A stretch of 64,000 bases of DNA from Eledone cirrhosa (Eukaryota). Under the pieces are notes generated by a model. It was not told the origin of the DNA and did not search any database. It was given only the letters and a program-made list of their open reading frames with translations. Below, one piece after another: positions 3,841-64,000 of the stretch. Made by a program: the position numbers and the translations under genes. The stretch covers positions 35,712,001 through 35,776,000 of the forward strand of contig OZ024742.1 of the NCBI GenBank assembly GCA_964016885.1, given 5' to 3'. Numbering within the stretch: position 1 is the stretch's first letter; each line of letters opens with the position of its first letter.

Positions 3841-3961
3841 TTATTGACACGTGTTTCTAAAACAGTTACATAACCTGAAAACAGCTACTATCTACAAAGT
3901 TTTAGTTATGCAGACATTCAATATTTCAATGTTATTATTTACTGTCATTTCATCAGAATAA
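3841..3961 (-). ncRNA. Type I HHR with a 92-nt stem II insertion
   Basis: Minus strand: TTATT-CTGATGA-[92 nt, aatgACAG...CTGTttta]-GAAA-CACGTG-TC-AATAA. Confidence 0.7.
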
Positions 3962-4878: not shown

Positions 4879-5504
4879 TTATGTAATATTCGGCTTGTAG
4901 TGGGAAAAAAGGGTTTTAGTTCTGTGACGGCAGAATAATGTTCGTTCAATTCTGTTATTCAGCAATTTCTTCTTGTGTGTGATTATGTAATAAATCTCAA
5001 GATTACACAATTTGCAGAAATTTTGGCTCCTGGAAAAGCTTTGGGTTTTAGCTAATTTCTCCCATTTTAGGGTAAACTTTTGATCGCTATCCCTGAGCGT
5101 CCAAGCTTTTTCTGCTAAAGTTGTTACATTTCTTTGGCTCTGGTGTTTTATTGAGTAAGAATGCCTATATAATCGAGATTTAAACGATGTTGCCGTTGAT
5201 CCCACGTAATACCACTCGTTGCCTCCGGATTTAATGGTACACTTATAAATAATATTTTTTTCCAGGCAGTTATTGCCGAGGGGGCAGTTGTCAGGATAGG
5301 TGCAGTTACAGTTGTGTACGTTGGGTTTTCTCTGGAGTAGTATTGCGGACGAACTTAGGTGTGGTTTATTTATGTTCTGTAGTGTATTGTCTACTGTTTT
5401 TTTTGTGTTCTTTGTACTTAAGTTCTTAGTGTTTTCGTTTAACCTTCTAGTATTGATTTTTTTGTGTGTTGTTCAAGGTTTAACGCTGTAGAGTATGACA
5501 GTCT

Positions 5505-12097: not shown

Positions 12098-12235
12098 TCA
12101 TCATTTTACGATCGTTTCTAGGATATATATGTTAGTGTTGGTATGCATATCCTATAGATCTATGTAAAAATTTTACAAACTATCAGAGGGAATATACATT
12201 CCTACACATATATATGCTGTCTTCAGAAATAATGA
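12098..12235 (-). ncRNA. Type I HHR with a 101-nt stem II insertion (mirror of 15308-15455)
   Basis: Minus strand: TCATTATTT-CTGAAGA-[101 nt]-GAAA-CGATCG-TA-AAATGATGA. Confidence 0.72.
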
Positions 12236-12923
12236 TATTTGTTTATTGAAAAAACCAACAAAGATTTAATACAATAGGTCTGTTTGGGAACAGGTTTTGA
12301 ATTGACCAATAGAAGGATAGTGAAGGTCAAGATAGTAATATAGTAGTAAAAGAACCTTAATTTATGGGTAGAGGAAGGTAGATTTCAGTTTTGGATGGAA
12401 AGAATATTATGAATGAAAGATTATTTTAGGGATGAGAATAGGTCATATGCTGACCTCAGAAATAATTATATTTGTTCATTGAATAAAACCAACAAAGATT
12501 TAATATAGTAGGTTTGTTTGGGAACAGGTTTTGAATTAACCAATAGAAAGGTAATAATTGGCCAAATGGTAAAATAGTAGTAATTGAAATTTATTTTGGG
12601 GTAGAAGAAGGCAGATTTCAGTTTTGAATGGAAGGAGTATGAAGAATGAAAAGTTTATTTTAGGGGTGAAAATAGGTCAGGTCAGTAAAAGGTAACACGA
12701 AAAGTTGCTGTTATAAAAGAATAATGTAAATATCTAAGGAGACTAAAATTTTACGATAAAAGTGTTAGTGAAAAAAATATATATGGAATTTACATCTATG
12801 AAAAGAAAATAAATTAATTTAATTGATGGGTATATTTATATTGATAAAATTATATTAATGCTTATAGATATGATAAATAAGAGTGCTGTTAAAGACGAGG
12901 GGGAATTTAAAAAAATATAAAAA

Positions 12924-12982
<59 letters not shown>

Positions 12983-13216
12983 TTGGGGGGGGGGGGTAAA
13001 TTTATTAGTGAGAAATAATAAATATATAGAGATTTCAAGGAACATAGAATCATAACCTGAAATTAAAACATTATATATGTTTACTTAATGGTATCAAAAT
13101 TAGGAAAAGATAGTTGTAAGAAGGAAAGTAAATTTATGAAGTTCATCAGTAGTAGAATATTAATTATTGGTTACCTAAATTAAAAATAGTTTTTATATTA
13201 ATTTCTAAAATGTATA

Positions 13217-13724
13217 TTAATTAGGTTTATAATATTTAAAGGTTTTTCTCAGTTTATGATTACACGATATTATTAATTCCTGTCGCTTATTTAATAGGAT
13301 ATCCTTAGATTTCATTATTTCAAAAAGTTCTTGGGAACATAATTTACATTCATATCTATTATTTTGATAAGGGGTGGCCCTTTTGAGCACACTCCAGGTC
13401 AGGTCATAATCTATATTCCTCTTTCTATAATTATTAATTATTTCAGCTAGAGATGTTGTATTAGCTAATGCGGCATTTTTAAAACTGTGTTTGTGGGTAT
13501 TAAATCTTACCTTAAATTGGTTAGAGGTAGCTCCTATATATGAATAAATTGAGTCCTTAGTGTTAACTTTACATTTATATACTATGTTATTAACAAGGCA
13601 ATTTCCTTTTAATGGGCAGTTTGCTTTGTTTCTACAGTTACAACTTTTCTTGAATCCTGTATCAGAGGAGATATTATGGTTAGTTTGATGTACTCGTGGT
13701 ATGCTCATGGTTTTTTTACATTTT
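13217..13724 (-). pseudogene. PLE GIY-YIG endonuclease C-terminus (left arm)
   Basis: CNCRNKANCPLKGNC...IVYKC...YIGAT..FKVRFNTH...LTW...CKLC..E...LLNKRQE...CNH. Confidence 0.88.
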
Positions 13725-13729
13725 TTACA

Positions 13730-14344
13730 TTTTTTACAACCACAAATACCATCAAATTTTAAATAGATCAACGGTTAAATTCTCCTACTCAACAACCAAA
13801 AACATAAAACAAAATATAAGTGACTACAATGCATATAAATGTAAAAAAAACCATGAGTATACCACGAGTACATCAAACTAACCATAATATCTCCTCTGAT
13901 ACAGGATTCAAGAAAAGTTGTAACTGTAGAAACAAAGCAAACTGCCCATTAAAAGGAAATTGCCTTGTTAATAACATAGTATATAAATGTAAAGTTAACA
14001 CTAAGGACTCAATTTATCCATATATAGGAGCTACCTCTAACCAATTTAAGGTAAGATTTAATACCCACAAACATAGTTTTAAAAATGCCGCATTAGCTAA
14101 TACAACATCTCTAGCTGAAATAATTAATAATTATAGAAAGAGGAATATAGATTATGACCTGACCTGGAGTGTGCTCAAAAGGGCCACCCCTTATCAAAAT
14201 AATAGATATGAATGTAGATTATGTTCCCAAGAACTTTTTGAAATAATGAAATCTAAGGATATCCTATTAAATAAGCGACAGGAATTAATAATATCGTGTA
14301 ATCATAAACTGAGAAAAACCTTTAAATATTATAAACCTAATTAA
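13730..14344 (+). pseudogene. PLE linker plus GIY-YIG endonuclease (right arm; +1 frameshift in the A-run at 13843-13850)
   Basis: ILNRSTVKFSYSTTKNIKQNISDYN joins KKTMSIPR...CNCRNKANCPLKGNC if the A8 run is read as A7, which is its length in the left arm. Confidence 0.88.
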
Positions 14345-14863
14345 TATACATTTTAGAAATTAATATAAAAACTATTTTTAATTTAGGTAACCAATAATTA
14401 ATATTCTACTACTGATGAACTTCATAATTTTACTTTCCTTCTTACAACTATCTTTTCCTAAAATTGATACCATTAAGTAAACATATATAATGTTTTAATT
14501 TCAGGTTATGATTCTATGTTCCTTGAAATCTCTATATATTTATTATTTCTCACTAATAAATTTACCCCCCCCCCCAATAATTATATATATATATATATTC
14601 TTTTTATATTTTTTTTAATTCCCCCTCGTCTTTAACAGCACTCTTCAATTACATCTAACTCTTATTTATCATATCTATAAGCATTAATATAATTTTATCA
14701 ATATAAATATACCCATCAATTAAATTAATTTATTTTCTTTTCATAGATGTAAATTCCATATATATTTTTTTCACTAACACTTTTATCGTAAAATTTTAGT
14801 CTCCTTAGATATTTACATTATTCTTTTATAACAGCAACTTTTCGTGTTACCTTTTACTGACCT

Positions 14864-15330
14864 GACCTATTTTCACCCCTAAAATAAACTTTTCATTCTT
14901 CATACTCCTTCCATTCAAAACTGAAATCTGCCTTCTTCTACCCCAAAATAAATTTCAATTACTACTATTTTACCATTTGGCCAATTATTATCTTTCTATT
15001 GGTTAATTCAAAACCTGTTCCCAAACAAACCTACTATATTAAATCTTTGTTGGTTTTATTCAATGAACGAATATAATTATTTCTGAGGTCAGCATATGAC
15101 CTATTCTCATCCCTAAAATAATCTTTCATTCATAATATTCTTTCCATCCAAAACTGAAATCTACCTTCCTCTAACCATAAATTAAGGTTCTTTTACTACT
15201 ATATTACTATCTTGACCTTCACTATCTTTCTATTGGTCAATTCAAAACCTGTTCCCAAACAGACCTATTGTATTAAATCTTTGTTGGTTTTTTTCAATAA
15301 ACAAATATCATTATTTCTGAAGACAGCATA
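14864..15330 (+). repeat. Diverged tandem duplication (~233 bp x2) in the PLE 3' UTR
   Basis: TGACCTATT...ATTTCTGA(GGT/AGA)CAGCATA occurs at 14864-15096 and 15097-15330. It is mirrored in the left arm. Confidence 0.85.
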
Positions 15331-15455
15331 TATATGCGTATATATGTGTAGGAATGTATATTCCCTCTGATAGTTTGTAAAATTTTTACATAGATCTATA
15401 GGATATGCATACCAACACTAACATATATATCCTAGAAACGATCGTAAAATGATGA
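15308..15455 (+). ncRNA. Type I HHR with a 111-nt stem II insertion
   Basis: TCATTATTT-CTGAAGA(15317)-[111 nt closed by ATATATATG/CATATATAT]-GAAA(15435)-CGATCG-TA-AAATGATGA. Stem I is 9 bp with one G-U pair. Confidence 0.72.
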
Positions 15456-18722: not shown

Positions 18723-19179
<457 letters not shown>

Positions 19180-35963: not shown

Positions 35964-36629
35964 ATCTATAAATAATTTATGAAGAATATATAATATGACG
36001 GGTAATTTTGAATAACAGTAATAAAAATGTATAAATATATGAAAATATAATTAAATATCGTTGTCTTTTTAAACTGCATTCTTTAAGACGTCTTTCTTTT
36101 ATTTTCAAAGAGAAAAAGGTGTAGTGTGGGTGAAATATGCTTACTGGTTTATTTTAGCAGGTTCAATGACCATATAACTGTTTTCTAGACAAACTGGAGC
36201 AGAATTATCATCGAAGGTGTACAAGCCATAAGGAAAAAAGTCACAGAAAAAAGTTACAATTTGGGTTAAGAAAAAAGAAAAATATCACATCTCATTATAT
36301 ATATATAGAAAGGGCGGTGAATTGGCAGTATCGGTAGAGGGTTGAACGCCATGCGTTGACGCATAGAGTTACTGCCCTTGCCATTCTGAGTTCAAATCCC
36401 GCCGAGGTTAACTTTGCCTTTCATCCTTACGGGGTCGATAAAATAAAGTACCAGTAATGCACCGGGAAATTGCTGGCCTTGTGCCAAAAGTAGAAACAAT
36501 TATATATATATAGAAAAAAAGATGAAATCGAAAATGCAACTGGAGTGTTATTTTTTTTTAAAAATATATATTTATTTGGTTCCTTTACGGATTTCGCAGT
36601 TCTTCTGCTTTTCAAAAGTAGAGTTGAGA

Positions 36630-37519
36630 TGGAGGGTCTGTGGTTTTTCTCACATCAGATGTGGTACCTCCGTAAAAACACTTATTAGCAAGACATACCC
36701 GTTCCAAAGACCCTCATGTATAGATAAGAAATGTATAACCTGTAAAATAAGCCCCCATATTAACTGTAAAACTAGAAATGTAGTGTATAGCATAAGATGT
36801 ACTGAAGGACAATGTAGAAACAAAAATATAGTGTACATAGGTGAGACAGCTCGTAGTATAGGGGAACGAATAAATGAACACTGGCGAGACCTTCAAGATA
36901 ATAAAGAATCATCTGTGCTCTACCAACATGCTAAGATAGAACACAGGGTTAAATTAGAGAACATAGAAATAAAAATAGAATCCACACACAGAAAAGATGC
37001 AATGTTTAGGCAAATTACAGAGGCAGTAAGCATAAAAGAATTATAACCAAAATTAAATAGAAAATATGAGTGGAACAGCAACATCACAACTTACAATTAA
37101 GGACAAAATGAAAACACACACACACATAGAACAAACAACCAACCAACAATAAATAAATAAATAAATAAATAAATAAACAAATAGATAAATGAACACAAAC
37201 ACACACAGACACCCGGATGTGGCGCATGCGCAAACTGAGCACACAACACACACACAGAAACAAAATGGCGTAGGACAGAAGAAAGGAAAGCCACAGAAAC
37301 AAAGAAAGGAATCCCCAGTCACTGAAGAGGTCACAGAGTGTGTGACGAAAGGACTATGACTATATATAAACAACTATCTGGTTGTGGAACCAACCAACCA
37401 ACCAGAAATTTATAAGTTTGTAGATTTGTAAATTTATAAATTTATAAATATATAATAAATTGAAGTGAAAGCAGCTGGTGCGTGTGTTTCTTATTGGCAA
37501 CATGACCCTCCCAAAGTAT

Positions 37520-42639: not shown

Positions 42640-42823
42640 AGATAGATAAATATTAGTTTAACCATGATAATAATAAGAAAGGCAAGTTACTTTACATATT
42701 TTTACATATTTCATTCATTATATATATATATATATGTGTGCGTGTGTATGTATATATACATATATGTATATATATATATATCTATATCTATATATATATA
42801 TATATATCTATATATATATACAT

Positions 42824-43694
42824 AGGACTTAAAATTAACCTGGCTAAGACCAAAGTACTAGTTTGTAGGAAAGAAAACAAGGCGGCGGTCCCTTCTGGGA
42901 AATGGTCGTGCTCGGTGTGTAGGAAAGGCGTAGGTAGAAACTCCATTTTATGTCCTAAATGCAAAGTATGGGTGCATAAAAGATGTAGTGGGATCACAGG
43001 TAGGCTAACTAAGAACATAGATTTTACATGTGGCCGGTGCTCTGGTGCAATAAGTAGCAGCAAGTGCCCACAAACTACTAGCTCTTTCAATTGCGCAGAG
43101 GGTTCTATAGAAATAGTGGACAGCTTCCGTTACCTGGGCGATAAAATCAGCAGTGGGGGAGGGTGCTCTGAAAGTACTGTAGCTAGAGTCAGAACTGGTT
43201 GGAAAAAGTTCAGAGAGCTTATACCACTATTAGCTGCTAAAGGGTTCTCACTAAAAATGAAAGGCAGGTTGTACGATGCCTGCATACGAACAGCAATGCT
43301 GCATGGCAGTGAGACCTGGGCATTGTGTGCAGAGGATATACGCAGACTAGAGAGGAACGAAGCTTGCATGCTCCGCTGGATGTGTAACAGTAATATACGT
43401 GAACGGCAAAGCATAAACGAACTAAGGAATAAATTAGAGATAAGAGGGATCAGATGTTGTTTACTCGAGAGAAGGCTACGTTGGTATGGACACGTGATGC
43501 GCATGAAAGTCGATAGCTGTATAACAAAGTGCAGGGCAATAAAGATAGACGGTAGTCACGGAATAGGCAGACCTAGAAAAACCTGGGACGAGCTGATAAA
43601 CTCCGACATCACACACTTACACCTCTCCAAGACAATGTCACTGGACCGAGACCTTTGGCGGTACTCAGTAACAGAGAAGACCCGCCTTACCTAA
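42824..43694 (+). pseudogene. 5'-truncated RTE-clade LINE ORF2 (end of the RT domain, an inserted PHD-like finger and the C-terminus); the frame is still open
   Basis: GLKINLAKTKVL...EIVDSFRYLGD...WKKFRELIPLL...MLHGSETW...RRLRWYGHVMRM...GRPRKTW...DRDLWR. The N-terminus of the tracked ORF is microsatellite. Confidence 0.92.
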
Positions 43695-58339: not shown

Positions 58340-58418
58340 TGTCTCCTGATGAGTTCGATACTCGAGATTTATCCTTAATAGGATATCTCAAAATACGAAC
58401 GAAACCATGGTAGGGATA
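58340..58418 (+). ncRNA. Type I HHR with an extended stem II
   Basis: TGTCTC-CTGATGA-GTTCG..GAGAT..ATCCTtaatAGGAT-ATCTC..CGAAC-GAAA-CCATGG-TA-GGGATA. Confidence 0.85.
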
Positions 58419-58717
58419 TAATTACGGTATGTACACATTCTTCTAACTTTAAATTTATATCTAATTGTGTATAGTTGACGATATATTTGGTCAGTTTCTA
58501 CATGCTGTTGAAATGTTGGGTAAATACTCTATTGTGGTCAACCGCGAAGAGGCTGCTTTCGGTTATTTATCAAATATTTCTTCATAGGAGCCTTTGTTCT
58601 TATAGCCTGGTCTAATTAATTTTTTATATGGTTAATTATGCTAATTGGGAGAGGAAATTGTATATATTTTATCTAATAATTCTAAGGACATGATTTATGA
58701 TATATATATATATATAT

Positions 58718-59476
58718 AATTAAGTCAAAGATGTACATCCATATATGTATACTGAAATACTAGTATGTATATGAATACACACACGTATACATATGTAGAT
58801 GTACCAAGTTTTTTTTCACTGATCACTTTACTGTGAGTGGCCAGCTATTCTGTATGTAAACACACAGACAAACCGGTTTTTAGAGTCATACTGGTTTTTG
58901 AGGAAACACCTTTCCTCTATTCTCCAGAAAGCCAGACAAGGAATATTGAACTAGTTTCGTTGTTGTTACAACTCATCAGCAATATTTACCTATCTTCCGG
59001 CCTCTCTAGAGAATCGTAAAAGCACATATCGCTATATGCTTTTTCTATGAAAATTAGTAGTGGGCAGACCAACTTGCATAGAGTGTGAGTAAGTACCGGT
59101 TCAACGGAGACGATAAAAACAAATAACGAAACGAAATTAAATTTCGTTTCGTTTGTAACTCACTTTTGTATGACTGACGCTCAAACAATTAAGTCAAAGA
59201 TGTACATCCATATATGTATACTGAAATACTAGTATGTATATGAATACACACACGTATACATATGTAGATGTACCAAGTTTTTTTTCACTGATCACTTTAC
59301 TGTGAGTGGCCAGCTATTCTGTATGTAAACACACAGACAAACCGGTTTTTAGAGTCATACTGGTTTTTGAGGAAACACCTTTCCTCTATTCTCCAGAAAG
59401 CCAGACAAGGAATATTGAACTAGTTTCGTTGTTGTTACAACTCATCAGCAATATTTACCTATCTTCCGGCCTGTCT
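58718..59476 (-). repeat. Inverted ~1.6 units of the 470-bp repeat, abutting (TA)n; HHRs at 58942-58986 and 59411-59455
   Basis: Reverse complement of the downstream unit. The junction is at 59476/59477. Confidence 0.95.
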
Positions 59477-62400
59477 TTGGTCTGCCCACTACTAATTTTC
59501 ATAGAAAAAGCATATAGCGATATGTGCTTTTACGATTCTCTAGAGAGGCCGGAAGATAGGTAAATATTGCTGATGAGTTGTAACAACAACGAAACTAGTT
59601 CAATATTCCTTGTCTGGCTTTCTGGAGAATAGAGGAAAGGTGTTTCCTCAAAAACCAGTATGACTCTAAAAACCGGTTTGTCTGTGTGTTTACATACAGA
59701 ATAGCTGGCCACTCACAGTAAAGTGATCAGTGAAAAAAAAACTTGGTACATCTACATATGTATACGTGTGTGTATTCATATACATACTAGTATTTCAGTA
59801 TACATATATGGATGTACATCTTTGACTTAATTGTTTGAGCGTCAGTCATACAAAAGTGAGTTACAAACGAAACGAAATTTAATTTCGTTTCGTTATTTGT
59901 TTTTATCGTCTCCGTTGAACCGGTACTTACTCACACTCTATGCAAGTTGGTCTGCCCACTACTAATTTTCATAGAAAAAGCATATAGCGATATGTGCTTT
60001 TACGATTCTCTAGAGAGGCCGGAAGATAGGTAAATATTGCTGATGAGTTGTAACAACAACGAAACTAGTTCAATATTCCTTGTCTGGCTTTCTGGAGAAT
60101 AGAGGAAAGGTGTTTCCTCAAAAACCAGTATGACTCTAAAAACCGGTTTGTCTGTGTGTTTACATACAGAATAGCTGGCCACTCACAGTAAAGTGATCAG
60201 TGAAAAAAAAACTTGGTACATCTACATATGTATACGTGTGTGTATTCATATACATACTAGTATTTCAGTATACATATATGGATGTACATCTTTGACTTAA
60301 TTGTTTGAGCGTCAGTCATACAAAAGTGAGTTACAAACGAAACGAAATTTAATTTCGTTTCGTTATTTGTTTTTATCGTCTCCGTTGAACCGGTACTTAC
60401 TCACACTCTATGCAAGTTGGTCTGCCCACTACTAATTTTCATAGAAAAAGCATATAGCGATATGTGCTTTTACGATTCTCTAGAGAGGCCGGAAGATAGG
60501 TAAATATTGCTGATGAGTTGTAACAACAACGAAACTAGTTCAATATTCCTTGTCTGGCTTTCTGGAGAATAGAGGAAAGGTGTTTCCTCAAAAACCAGTA
60601 TGACTCTAAAAACCGGTTTGTCTGTGTGTTTACATACAGAATAGCTGGCCACTCACAGTAAAGTGATCAGTGAAAAAAAACTTGGTACATCTACATATGT
60701 ATACGTGTGTGTATTCATATACATACTAGTATTTCAGTATACATATATGGATGTACATCTTTGACTTAATTGTTTGAGCGTCAGTCATACAAAAGTGAGT
60801 TACAAACGAAACGAAATTTAATTTCGTTTCGTTATTTGTTTTTATCGTCTCCGTTGAACCGGTACTTACTCACACTCTATGCAAGTTGGTCTGCCCACTA
60901 CTAATTTTCATAGAAAAAGCATATAGCGATATGTGCTTTTACGATTCTCTAGAGAGGCCGGAAGATAGGTAAATATTGCTGATGAGTTGTAACAACAACG
61001 AAACTAGTTCAATATTCCTTGTCTGGCTTTCTGGAGAATAGAGGAAAGGTGTTTCCTCAAAAACCAGTATGACTCTAAAAACCGGTTTGTCTGTGTGTTT
61101 ACATACAGAATAGCTGGCCACTCACAGTAAAGTGATCAGTGAAAAAAAAAAACTTGGTACATCTACATATGTATACGTGTGTGTATTCATATACATACTA
61201 GTATTTCAGTATACATATATGGATGTACATCTTTGACTTAATTGTTTGAGCGTCAGTCATACAAAAGTGAGTTACAAACGAAACGAAATTTAATTTCGTT
61301 TCGTTATTTGTTTTTATCGTCTCCGTTGAACCGGTACTTACTCACACTCTATGCAAGTTGGTCTGCCCACTACTAATTTTCATAGAAAAAGCATATAGCG
61401 ATATGTGCTTTTACGATTCTCTAGAGAGGCCGGAAGATAGGTAAATATTGCTGATGAGTTGTAACAACAACGAAACTAGTTCAATATTCCTTGTCTGGCT
61501 TTCTGGAGAATAGAGGAAAGGTGTTTCCTCAAAAACCAGTATGACTCTAAAAACCGGTTTGTCTGTGTGTTTACATACAGAATAGCTGGCCACTCACAGT
61601 AAAGTGATCAGTGAAAAAAAACTTGGTACATCTACATATGTATACGTGTGTGTATTCATATACATACTAGTATTTCAGTATACATATATGGATGTACATC
61701 TTTGACTTAATTGTTTGAGCGTCAGTCATACAAAAGTGAGTTACAAACGAAACGAAATTTAATTTCGTTTCGTTATTTGTTTTTATCGTCTCCGTTGAAC
61801 CGGTACTTACTCACACTCTATGCAAGTTGGTCTGCCCACTACTAATTTTCATAGAAAAAGCATATAGCGATATGTGCTTTTACGATTCTCTAGAGAGGCC
61901 GGAAGATAGGTAAATATTGCTGATGAGTTGTAACAACAACGAAACTAGTTCAATATTCCTTGTCTGGCTTTCTGGAGAATAGAGGAAAGGTGTTTCCTCA
62001 AAAACCAGTATGACTCTAAAAACCGGTTTGTCTGTGTGTTTACATACAGAATAGCTGGCCACTCACAGTAAAGTGATCAGTGAAAAAAAAAAACTTGGTA
62101 CATCTACATATGTATACGTGTGTGTATTCATATACATACTAGTATTTCAGTATACATATATGGATGTACATCTTTGACTTAATTGTTTGAGCGTCAGTCA
62201 TACAAAAGTGAGTTACAAACGAAACGAAATTTAATTTCGTTTCGTTATTTGTTTTTATCGTCTCCGTTGAACCGGTACTTACTCACACTCTATGCAAGTT
62301 GGTCTGCCCACTACTAATTTTCATAGAAAAAGCATATAGCGATATGTGCTTTTACGATTCTCTAGAGAGGCCGGAAGATAGGTAAATATTGCTGATGAGT

Positions 62401-64000
62401 TGTAACAACAACGAAACTAGTTCAATATTCCTTGTCTGGCTTTCTGGAGAATAGAGGAAAGGTGTTTCCTCAAAAACCAGTATGACTCTAAAAACCGGTT
62501 TGTCTGTGTGTTTACATACAGAATAGCTGGCCACTCACAGTAAAGTGATCAGTGAAAAAAAACTTGGTACATCTACATATGTATACGTGTGTGTATTCAT
62601 ATACATACTAGTATTTCAGTATACATATATGGATGTACATCTTTGACTTAATTGTTTGAGCGTCAGTCATACAAAAGTGAGTTACAAACGAAACGAAATT
62701 TAATTTCGTTTCGTTATTTGTTTTTATCGTCTCCGTTGAACCGGTACTTACTCACACTCTATGCAAGTTGGTCTGCCCACTACTAATTTTCATAGAAAAA
62801 GCATATAGCGATATGTGCTTTTACGATTCTCTAGAGAGGCCGGAAGATAGGTAAATATTGCTGATGAGTTGTAACAACAACGAAACTAGTTCAATATTCC
62901 TTGTCTGGCTTTCTGGAGAATAGAGGAAAGGTGTTTCCTCAAAAACCAGTATGACTCTAAAAACCGGTTTGTCTGTGTGTTTACATACAGAATAGCTGGC
63001 CACTCACAGTAAAGTGATCAGTGAAAAAAAACTTGGTACATCTACATATGTATACGTGTGTGTATTCATATACATACTAGTATTTCAGTATACATATATG
63101 GATGTACATCTTTGACTTAATTGTTTGAGCGTCAGTCATACAAAAGTGAGTTACAAACGAAACGAAATTTAATTTCGTTTCGTTATTTGTTTTTATCGTC
63201 TCCGTTGAACCGGTACTTACTCACACTCTATGCAAGTTGGTCTGCCCACTACTAATTTTCATAGAAAAAGCATATAGCGATATGTGCTTTTACGATTCTC
63301 TAGAGAGGCCGGAAGATAGGTAAATATTGCTGATGAGTTGTAACAACAACGAAACTAGTTCAATATTCCTTGTCTGGCTTTCTGGAGAATAGAGGAAAGG
63401 TGTTTCCTCAAAAACCAGTATGACTCTAAAAACCGGTTTGTCTGTGTGTTTACATACAGAATAGCTGGCCACTCACAGTAAAGTGATCAGTGAAAAAAAA
63501 CTTGGTACATCTACATATGTATACGTGTGTGTATTCATATACATACTAGTATTTCAGTATACATATATGGATGTACATCTTTGACTTAATTGTTTGAGCG
63601 TCAGTCATACAAAAGTGAGTTACAAACGAAACGAAATTTAATTTCGTTTCGTTATTTGTTTTTATCGTCTCCGTTGAACCGGTACTTACTCACACTCTAT
63701 GCAAGTTGGTCTGCCCACTACTAATTTTCATAGAAAAAGCATATAGCGATATGTGCTTTTACGATTCTCTAGAGAGGCCGGAAGATAGGTAAATATTGCT
63801 GATGAGTTGTAACAACAACGAAACTAGTTCAATATTCCTTGTCTGGCTTTCTGGAGAATAGAGGAAAGGTGTTTCCTCAAAAACCAGTATGACTCTAAAA
63901 ACCGGTTTGTCTGTGTGTTTACATACAGAATAGCTGGCCACTCACAGTAAAGTGATCAGTGAAAAAAAACTTGGTACATCTACATATGTATACGTGTGTG
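59477..64000 (+). repeat. Tandem array of 469-472-bp non-coding units, each with one HHR (retrozyme-like); runs off the window
   Basis: CTGATGA occurs at 59570, 60040, 60510, 60979, 61451, 61920, 62392, 62861, 63330 and 63799. The only differences I see are in one A-run (8, 9 or 11 A). Confidence 0.97.
59563..59607 (+). ncRNA. Minimal type I HHR of the array unit (first of 10 plus-strand copies); predicted cleavage after 59600
   Basis: AATATTG-CTGATGA-GTTGTaacaACAAC-GAAA-CTAG-TT-CAATATT. It has a perfect 7-bp stem I, a 5-bp stem II, an intact core and a GUU triplet. Confidence 0.92.

Follow-up and report, generated by a model that had tools for sequence, protein, structure and literature searches.

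The window analysed here, a stretch of 64,000 nucleotides from Eledone cirrhosa, closes with 5.3 kb made up of an array of a 470-bp unit that carries a hammerhead ribozyme, and the question raised by this locus is how such an array comes into being: whether its ribozymes cut RNA between adjacent units, as the initial annotation proposed, and from what template, and by what machinery, the units reach the genome. The ribozyme reported there was confirmed as a complete type I hammerhead at 59563–59607, with a stem III of the form A-CUAG-U and one ribozyme per 470-bp unit (Table 1). A motif scan of the window located ten copies on the forward strand and two on the reverse, at a period of 469–472 bp; all 12 unit junctions in the window carry a type I hammerhead, the full units there differ solely in one A-run, and 347 hammerhead copies were counted in the 73 loci examined. 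All 12 copies in the window matched the Rfam model RF02275 (Hammerhead_HH9) over its full length with 37.7 bits (E = 6e-6), each falling short of the gathering threshold of 52 bits.

Table 1. Positions of the ribozyme, repeat and insertion features in the window, with the frames of a nearby Penelope-like pair.
Feature	Position	Strand	Remarks
GIY-YIG-type frames of the 12212–15331 pair	13217–13774; 13820–14344	−; +	
(AT)n target flank, left end	58697–58717	.	
Short inverted arm	58718–59476	−	1.6 units; abuts (AT)n at its outer end, unit position 232
Long arm	59477–64000	+	9.9 head-to-tail units of 469–472 bp
Type I hammerhead	59563–59607	+	putative cut after GUU at 59600
Stem I, AAUAUUG/CAAUAUU	59563–59569/59601–59607	+	7 bp, extendable
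Core CUGAUGA	59570–59576	+	
Stem II, GUUGU/ACAAC	59577–59590	+	
GAAA	59591–59594	+	followed by CUAG, UU
ACUAGU, 6-nt palindrome	59594–59599	+	could form inter-unit stem III (sequence and folding)
One unit, cut site to cut site (unit positions 1–470)	59601–60070	+	predicted RNA monomer or circle; 36% GC
'Tail' between the fixed ends (unit positions 232–236 and 306)	59832–59906	+	70–74 nt; long hairpin

The unit is non-coding, no ORF of 110 aa or more occurring at 58.7–64 kb of the window, and G or C makes up 168 of its 470 bases. No reverse transcriptase or GIY-YIG ORF was found in the array, the insertions fetched consist of unit sequence end to end, no LTR-like layout was seen in the loci fetched, and simple patterns for TATA, A-box and B-box gave no match in a promoter check. 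The circular monomer has a predicted folding energy of −152 kcal/mol, compared with −96 ± 5 for 60 shuffles (z = −11), with stems I and II both predicted. Variants in the unit fold comprised 3 compensatory, 36 one-sided and 26 breaking pair types, a compensatory pair lying in stem II at 448/459. None of the 16 positions in CUGAUGA, GAAA, CUAG and U16.1 varied array-wide, compared with 121 of 470 over the unit, and cleavage therefore appears to be needed at some step. Metazoan non-LTR retrozymes are likewise described (PMC7229834; 10.64898/2026.07.22.740005) as tandem units that are non-coding and low in GC, each carrying one type I hammerhead, with a highly self-paired predicted circle, thousands of copies and Penelope-like elements (PLEs) in the same genome; the 470-nt unit lies above the 170–400 nt given in the first of these sources and within the 51–972 bp given in the second. 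By every feature that could be tested, the element is a non-LTR retrozyme.

The initial annotation rested its case for cleavage between units on an 8-nt palindrome, AACTAGTT. This is indeed present at 59593–59600, but the working palindrome of stem III is only the 6-nt ACUAGU (A15.1–U16.1): the outer A and U of the 8-mer are the core base A14 and the cleavage base N17, and pairing throughout would take in core bases. The 8-nt form is confined to copies with a GUU cut site and is missing from all GUC copies. Neither the GUU triplet nor the inverted arm of the array was mentioned there. By itself the palindrome is weak evidence for dimers, because the fold already demands the A–U and C–G pairs and leaves only a 2-nt loop free; four of the 16 possible dinucleotides are self-complementary, and U is one of three bases allowed at N17. 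Across the 73 loci, CUAG is preserved in 345 of 347 copies, and the base at N17 is U, C or G in 276, 69 and 2 of them respectively. Genome-wide, one exact pattern returned 4,976 GUU copies and a looser pattern 3,109 GUC copies. A GUU site is cut more slowly than GUC. Copies with a single change in stem III numbered 73 genome-wide (25, 16 and 32 at three positions), and no copy in the genome had a double change of the loop that keeps the palindrome. The sole stem III variant that fills arrays is CUGG, in two loci. It can still self-pair (predicted −4.8, where the ACUAGU duplex is predicted at −6.2 kcal/mol at 25 °C), and was the only one of nine folded variants to keep a strong self-duplex; this is no proof of selection for pairing, since CUGG is also an editing-type change.

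Folding, with models that take no account of core and tertiary contacts, suggests how two units might cooperate. When an RNA holds two ribozymes of the window, the unit lying between them is predicted to close on itself with the stem I strands swapped (P = 0.7–0.86), and the palindromes to pair as an inter-unit stem III (P = 0.43–0.63 at 15–37 °C), in agreement with the proposed pairing of neighbours; in a three-ribozyme RNA, however, it is units 1 and 3 that would pair. Most of these window-dimer folds include an A14–U17 pair (P = 0.32–0.55), which should hinder the core, and in five GUC-type two-unit RNAs the predicted inter-unit stem III reached a P of just 0–0.29. Dimer cleavage between units is nevertheless likely, judging from the folding, the preservation of CUAG and the axolotl precedent, although the full 8-mer would hinder the core and the idea is already published. 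A short palindromic helix III that works as a dimer in tandem repeats, with multimers cut and monomeric circles not, is described in PMC4209133. The axolotl ribozyme HHR_Amex1, with a one-pair stem and a palindromic tetraloop, was 6% cleaved in 1 h as a monomer and much more as a dimer (PMC7229834), and PLE ribozymes are likewise reviewed as cutting as dimers (PMC6765202). Newt satellite 2 and HHR_Amex1 share with the present ribozyme the one-pair helix III, the palindromic tetraloop, the long stem I and the tandem context; here, unlike there, the host is an invertebrate, Eledone cirrhosa, and most sampled copies are cut at GUU with a palindrome reaching core bases. By analogy, dimer cleavage can be regarded as established for this helix III design, and hence not new. 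That multimers would be cut while a single circle stays stable is plausible and also in print (PMC4209133, and the axolotl tests of the same helix III design), whereas for the copy-number switch built on it we found no support; arm length ranges across loci from under one to more than 14 units. The mechanism first proposed is probably right in outline, but known.

We think it unlikely that the monomer instead cuts well, with contacts between loops I and II offsetting the weak stem III and the circles protected otherwise, for example by protein. A long stem I that contains an internal loop and the small loop of stem II would favour this, and PMC7229834 reports coral and mussel monomers cutting at ~0.8 and ~0.1 per min and argues that in vivo it is not self-pairing but another mechanism that blocks the circles; but those two ribozymes have two pairs plus a tetraloop, unlike the design here, which equals that of HHR_Amex1, where the tertiary contacts are kept and the monomer still reached only 6%.

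Five other type I hammerheads in the window, at 19082(+), 18940(−), 39802(+), 48212(+) and 22707(−), have a stem III that differs and stays palindromic (UGCGCA, UACGUA and UAUAUA among the variants), and on sequence grounds they would offer better covariation support for dimers than the 470-bp family. The 18940/19082 pair is an inverted insertion adjoining (AT)n. A separate hammerhead at 58346(+), 370 bp left of the array, combines a long stem II with CCAUGG as its palindromic stem III; its cut triplet is GUA.

The new part of the analysis is how the arrays arise, the paired-ribozyme mechanism being already described. The array in the window consists of two arms in inverted orientation (Table 1), the long arm extending 134 bp beyond the window, where its end, at unit position 306, abuts (AT)n (G000:C3:35776134). 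With the unit as query, at least 324 matches were obtained, 25 of 328 candidates being scored. In a sample made up of the window's own locus and 13 from the unit matches listed, chosen by identity alone, unit position 306 formed an outer end in all 14 loci, and in 13 the opposite end lay at 232–236 (for one of them judged by eye on a short stub); the remaining locus ends in an N gap. Two long arms pointing apart were found at 12 of the 14, the inner joints between arms varying among loci, and the flanks were rich in AT repeats at 12 (C2a was not, and C4b has one end in a gap). Genome-wide, exact junctions of position 306 with AT numbered 2,094, compared with none for the reversed control, and the family therefore has at least 2,094 insertions.

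A further 60 loci were chosen by the 306+AT end from the first 100 such junctions listed, all on contig C1. An inverted arm ended at 219–236 in 34 of these (at 231–236 in 33), two of the 34 being one duplicated locus; a further 6 had a short inverted stub, 15 took other forms and 5 were unreadable because they run off the stretch, so that, stubs counted, 40 of 55 readable loci have an inverted copy. The far flank was AT-rich in 33 of the 34 loci with an inverted arm. In run X1, which may be the source sample, loose ends followed by AT were found at both fixed places, in 12 contigs and in 1 contig. None of 130 5' ends lay exactly at the cut site and five lay within 5 nt of it, with no pile-up; four apparent cut-site ends in the 60-locus reading were rejected as alignment artefacts. 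A satellite-only origin was rejected because the ends are fixed across chromosomes, and an assembly artefact because haplotypes are specific to each locus, flanks are unique and the ends recur in run X1. Within the sample, L080 and L081 are one insertion, duplicated ~18 kb apart, and L063 holds two insertions of the family near each other. At L053, L083 and L100 the left part aligns with clustered differences around unit positions 147–230 and is probably a short fold-back arm inside a long AT-rich hairpin.

Two inverted arms with fixed ends at an AT target match the inverted-copy-plus-tail signature of PLEs. PMC8557442 describes PLE insertions as an inverted truncated copy with a tail at a (TA)n target, and the same signature is described in PMC3846280; PMC11167929 accounts for it by a pair of internal start sites together with cleavage of both strands, and PMC3846280, alternatively, by self-priming on an antisense template. 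The 'tail' here would accordingly mark a pair of reverse-transcription start sites. Endonuclease-bearing (EN+) PLEs, as described for the Hydra clade (PMC8557442) and for Anolis Poseidon PAc (PMC11167929), share with the present insertions the inverted 5'-truncated copy, the one-ended tail, the (TA)n or AT-rich target, the two internal start sites and a hammerhead in the repeat. Unlike them, the 470-bp family has neither a reverse transcriptase nor an endonuclease gene, both of its arms are pure repeat, and its tail is 70–74 nt rather than 30–40, which counts against the match; a DNA comparison of the unit with two local PLE families found no likeness beyond simple repeats. The non-autonomous Chlamys elements, such as MRC1 (PMC8557442), are also PLE-moved and form multicopy head-to-tail insertions, but as a rule they have 3' sequence in common with an autonomous family, and their clade is reported in that source to be without canonical hammerheads.

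Candidate enzymes are close at hand. The window holds GIY-YIG-type PLE fragments, two of them from abundant families, and young PLE families with Hydra-clade motifs are abundant in this genome. A very young PLE family is represented by its 3' end at 4879–5472(−); dozens of its copies are 100% identical, open frames of 785 aa are numerous, and a hammerhead-like core lies downstream at 3956(−). Two PLE 3' ends lie in inverted orientation at 12212–15331, each outer end carrying 234-bp repeats; an 830-aa frame of this family contains RWR, DKT, YRDD, CxCX5C, CxxC and CxH, and compared by eye appears to match the Hydra clade, which targets (TA)n, as PMC8557442 describes it. Pfam returned no family in the 830-aa ORF or in two of the window fragments. 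A further GIY-YIG fragment lies at 36447–37046(+), with a weak Pfam match (E = 3e-4). The 345-aa frame at 42657–43694(+) contains a PHD finger and is probably the end of a LINE.

In order to characterize the template, we compared sequence variants between the two arms of each insertion and between the units of each array. The variant counts exclude L081 (the duplicate of L080, kept in the classes of the 60-locus sample), pieces shorter than 60 nt, 8–10 nt at joints, and positions prone to indels, both near the A-run and in a handful of further short stretches. The two arms were identical at family-variable sites in 34 of 43 loci, compared with 16 of 1,275 random locus pairs; they differed at one such site in seven loci and at two or more in two, with two to three differences in L058 and L078. 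A-to-I editing leaves A>G changes on one strand. Among private changes shared by a whole array, 13 of 28 in the pooled data were A>G as read on the ribozyme strand, compared with 18 of 217 changes confined to single units (Fisher, 2e-6), in which A>G was outnumbered by T>C (18 versus 30). The first 54 loci less one duplicate gave A>G in 14 of 21 array-wide changes, and allowing the allele in one other locus (the relaxed count) gave 24 of 45. In a second sample of 20 loci the signal was weak, at 2 of 11 strict and 4 of 17 relaxed changes (A>G versus T>C, 2:2 and 4:2). Half of the A>G signal in the first sample came from L089, the strict ratio of A>G to T>C being 7:2 when it was excluded (p = 0.10); counted by locus, the numbers were 7 versus 2 strict (p = 0.18) and 13 versus 2 relaxed (p = 0.007). 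L167 was selected because of an A>G in stem III and repeats six A>G changes in all 14 covering units; setting aside the one that prompted its selection, its rare array-wide changes are five A>G and one T>C, three of them at L089's sites. The recurrent A>G sites are unit positions 318, 319, 340, 344 and 345. Where one edit pattern fills an array, a single unit must have been the template, and a circle copied repeatedly is the simplest way for this to happen. Of 101 arms, 62 are longer than one unit.

Against a circle stand the weak A>G signal of the second sample, the mosaic arrays with recurring minority variants (9 of 41 arrays of at least three units) and L087, in which a haplotype missing from the inner units is common to the outermost ones in the two arms, a pattern that fits a multimer template. 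The template might then be an uncut multimeric transcript of an existing array, with a ribozyme that is slow (the GUU site and the over-extended palindrome) or dependent on protein, and with uniform arrays reflecting uniform parents. Single-unit variants are shared between arms in L087 and C4b, the predicted A14–U17 pairing (P = 0.32–0.55) would be consistent with a slow ribozyme, unprocessed RNA was the main in vitro substrate of a lizard PLE (PMC11167929), and only one of nine Xenopus dimers was cleaved (10.64898/2026.07.22.740005). Editing of a multimer should, however, give unit-specific A>G changes, and the single-unit changes show none of this excess; the edits of L089 and L167 are common to whole arrays, and the core never varies array-wide. 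We consider a multimeric template quite unlikely.

Growth after insertion bears on the same point. A PLE-type event might insert one or two units per arm, the arrays then growing by unequal crossover or slippage, and periodic variants in C9, L055, L096, L110 and L167, a median arm of just 597 nt and the crossover model proposed for satellites in 10.64898/2026.07.22.740005 would agree with this. The youngest loci, nearly identical between chromosomes, however, already reach 19 units in which no internal substitutions occur. Expansion would be needed in each arm separately, and short arms also cross an intact junction, so that a circle or multimer would still be required; as the source of the arrays, growth is distinctly improbable.

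The explanation that we favour, with reasonable confidence as a whole, is that an edited monomer circle is copied round and round by a PLE enzyme from two internal start sites, the family being young, non-coding and moved by Penelope-like machinery. The array would be transcribed, and two hammerheads would swap stem I strands and pair their ACUAGU palindromes to release a 470-nt unit, as the anatomy, the folding and the axolotl precedent suggest. The unit would be ligated into a highly self-paired circle, which would persist because a lone ribozyme cannot form stem III, and which would sometimes be A-to-I edited. A PLE protein would nick both strands of an (AT)n run, the target observed at these loci, and reverse transcription would be primed at internal sites 306 and 231–236, usually on the same molecule, as the fixed ends and shared haplotypes indicate. 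Each polymerase would circle the template until drop-off, and joining of the two cDNAs back to back would give the observed architecture; the mosaic arrays suggest that some arrays later gain units through local DNA duplication. It is possible, though doubtful, that each array is a single-molecule record of one A-to-I-edited circle copied many times by a Penelope-type enzyme on both target strands and that GUU is a selected brake keeping template circles intact. Were the record reading true, RNA editing would be written back into a genome, and RNA edits would become heritable DNA and feed the evolution of the family.

PLEs have been named as candidates, with the circle as template, by Cervera and de la Pena (2020; PMC7229834), and Li et al. 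(2026; 10.64898/2026.07.22.740005) tie retrozymes to PLEs by distribution and phylogeny and state that the mechanism of re-entry remains to be elucidated; in these papers PLE reverse transcription of the circle is a hypothesis, or growth by crossover is proposed. The available text of these two sources does not describe inverted arrays with two arms, internal ends that are fixed, (AT)n targets or array-wide A>G changes, and a search of the openly accessible literature turned up papers neither on inverted insertions of retrozymes with fixed ends nor on editing across whole arrays. It is the insertion architecture and the edit pattern that make the standing hypothesis testable; the dimer claim alone adds little. 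The family allows the start sites to be predicted exactly and provides a target sequence, candidate enzymes whose frames are open over 785–830 aa and ~2,000 young insertions, and rolling-circle retrotransposition of a natural circular RNA thus becomes directly testable.

Closed unit-length contigs in runs X3 and X6 (one each, depth ~10) were not used as evidence for circles, because a tandem array yields the same. The unit at 59480–59949 was present at low depth in runs X3, X5 and X6, which are labelled as three other organisms, and was almost identical in X3; this could reflect contamination, diet, relatives or horizontal spread.
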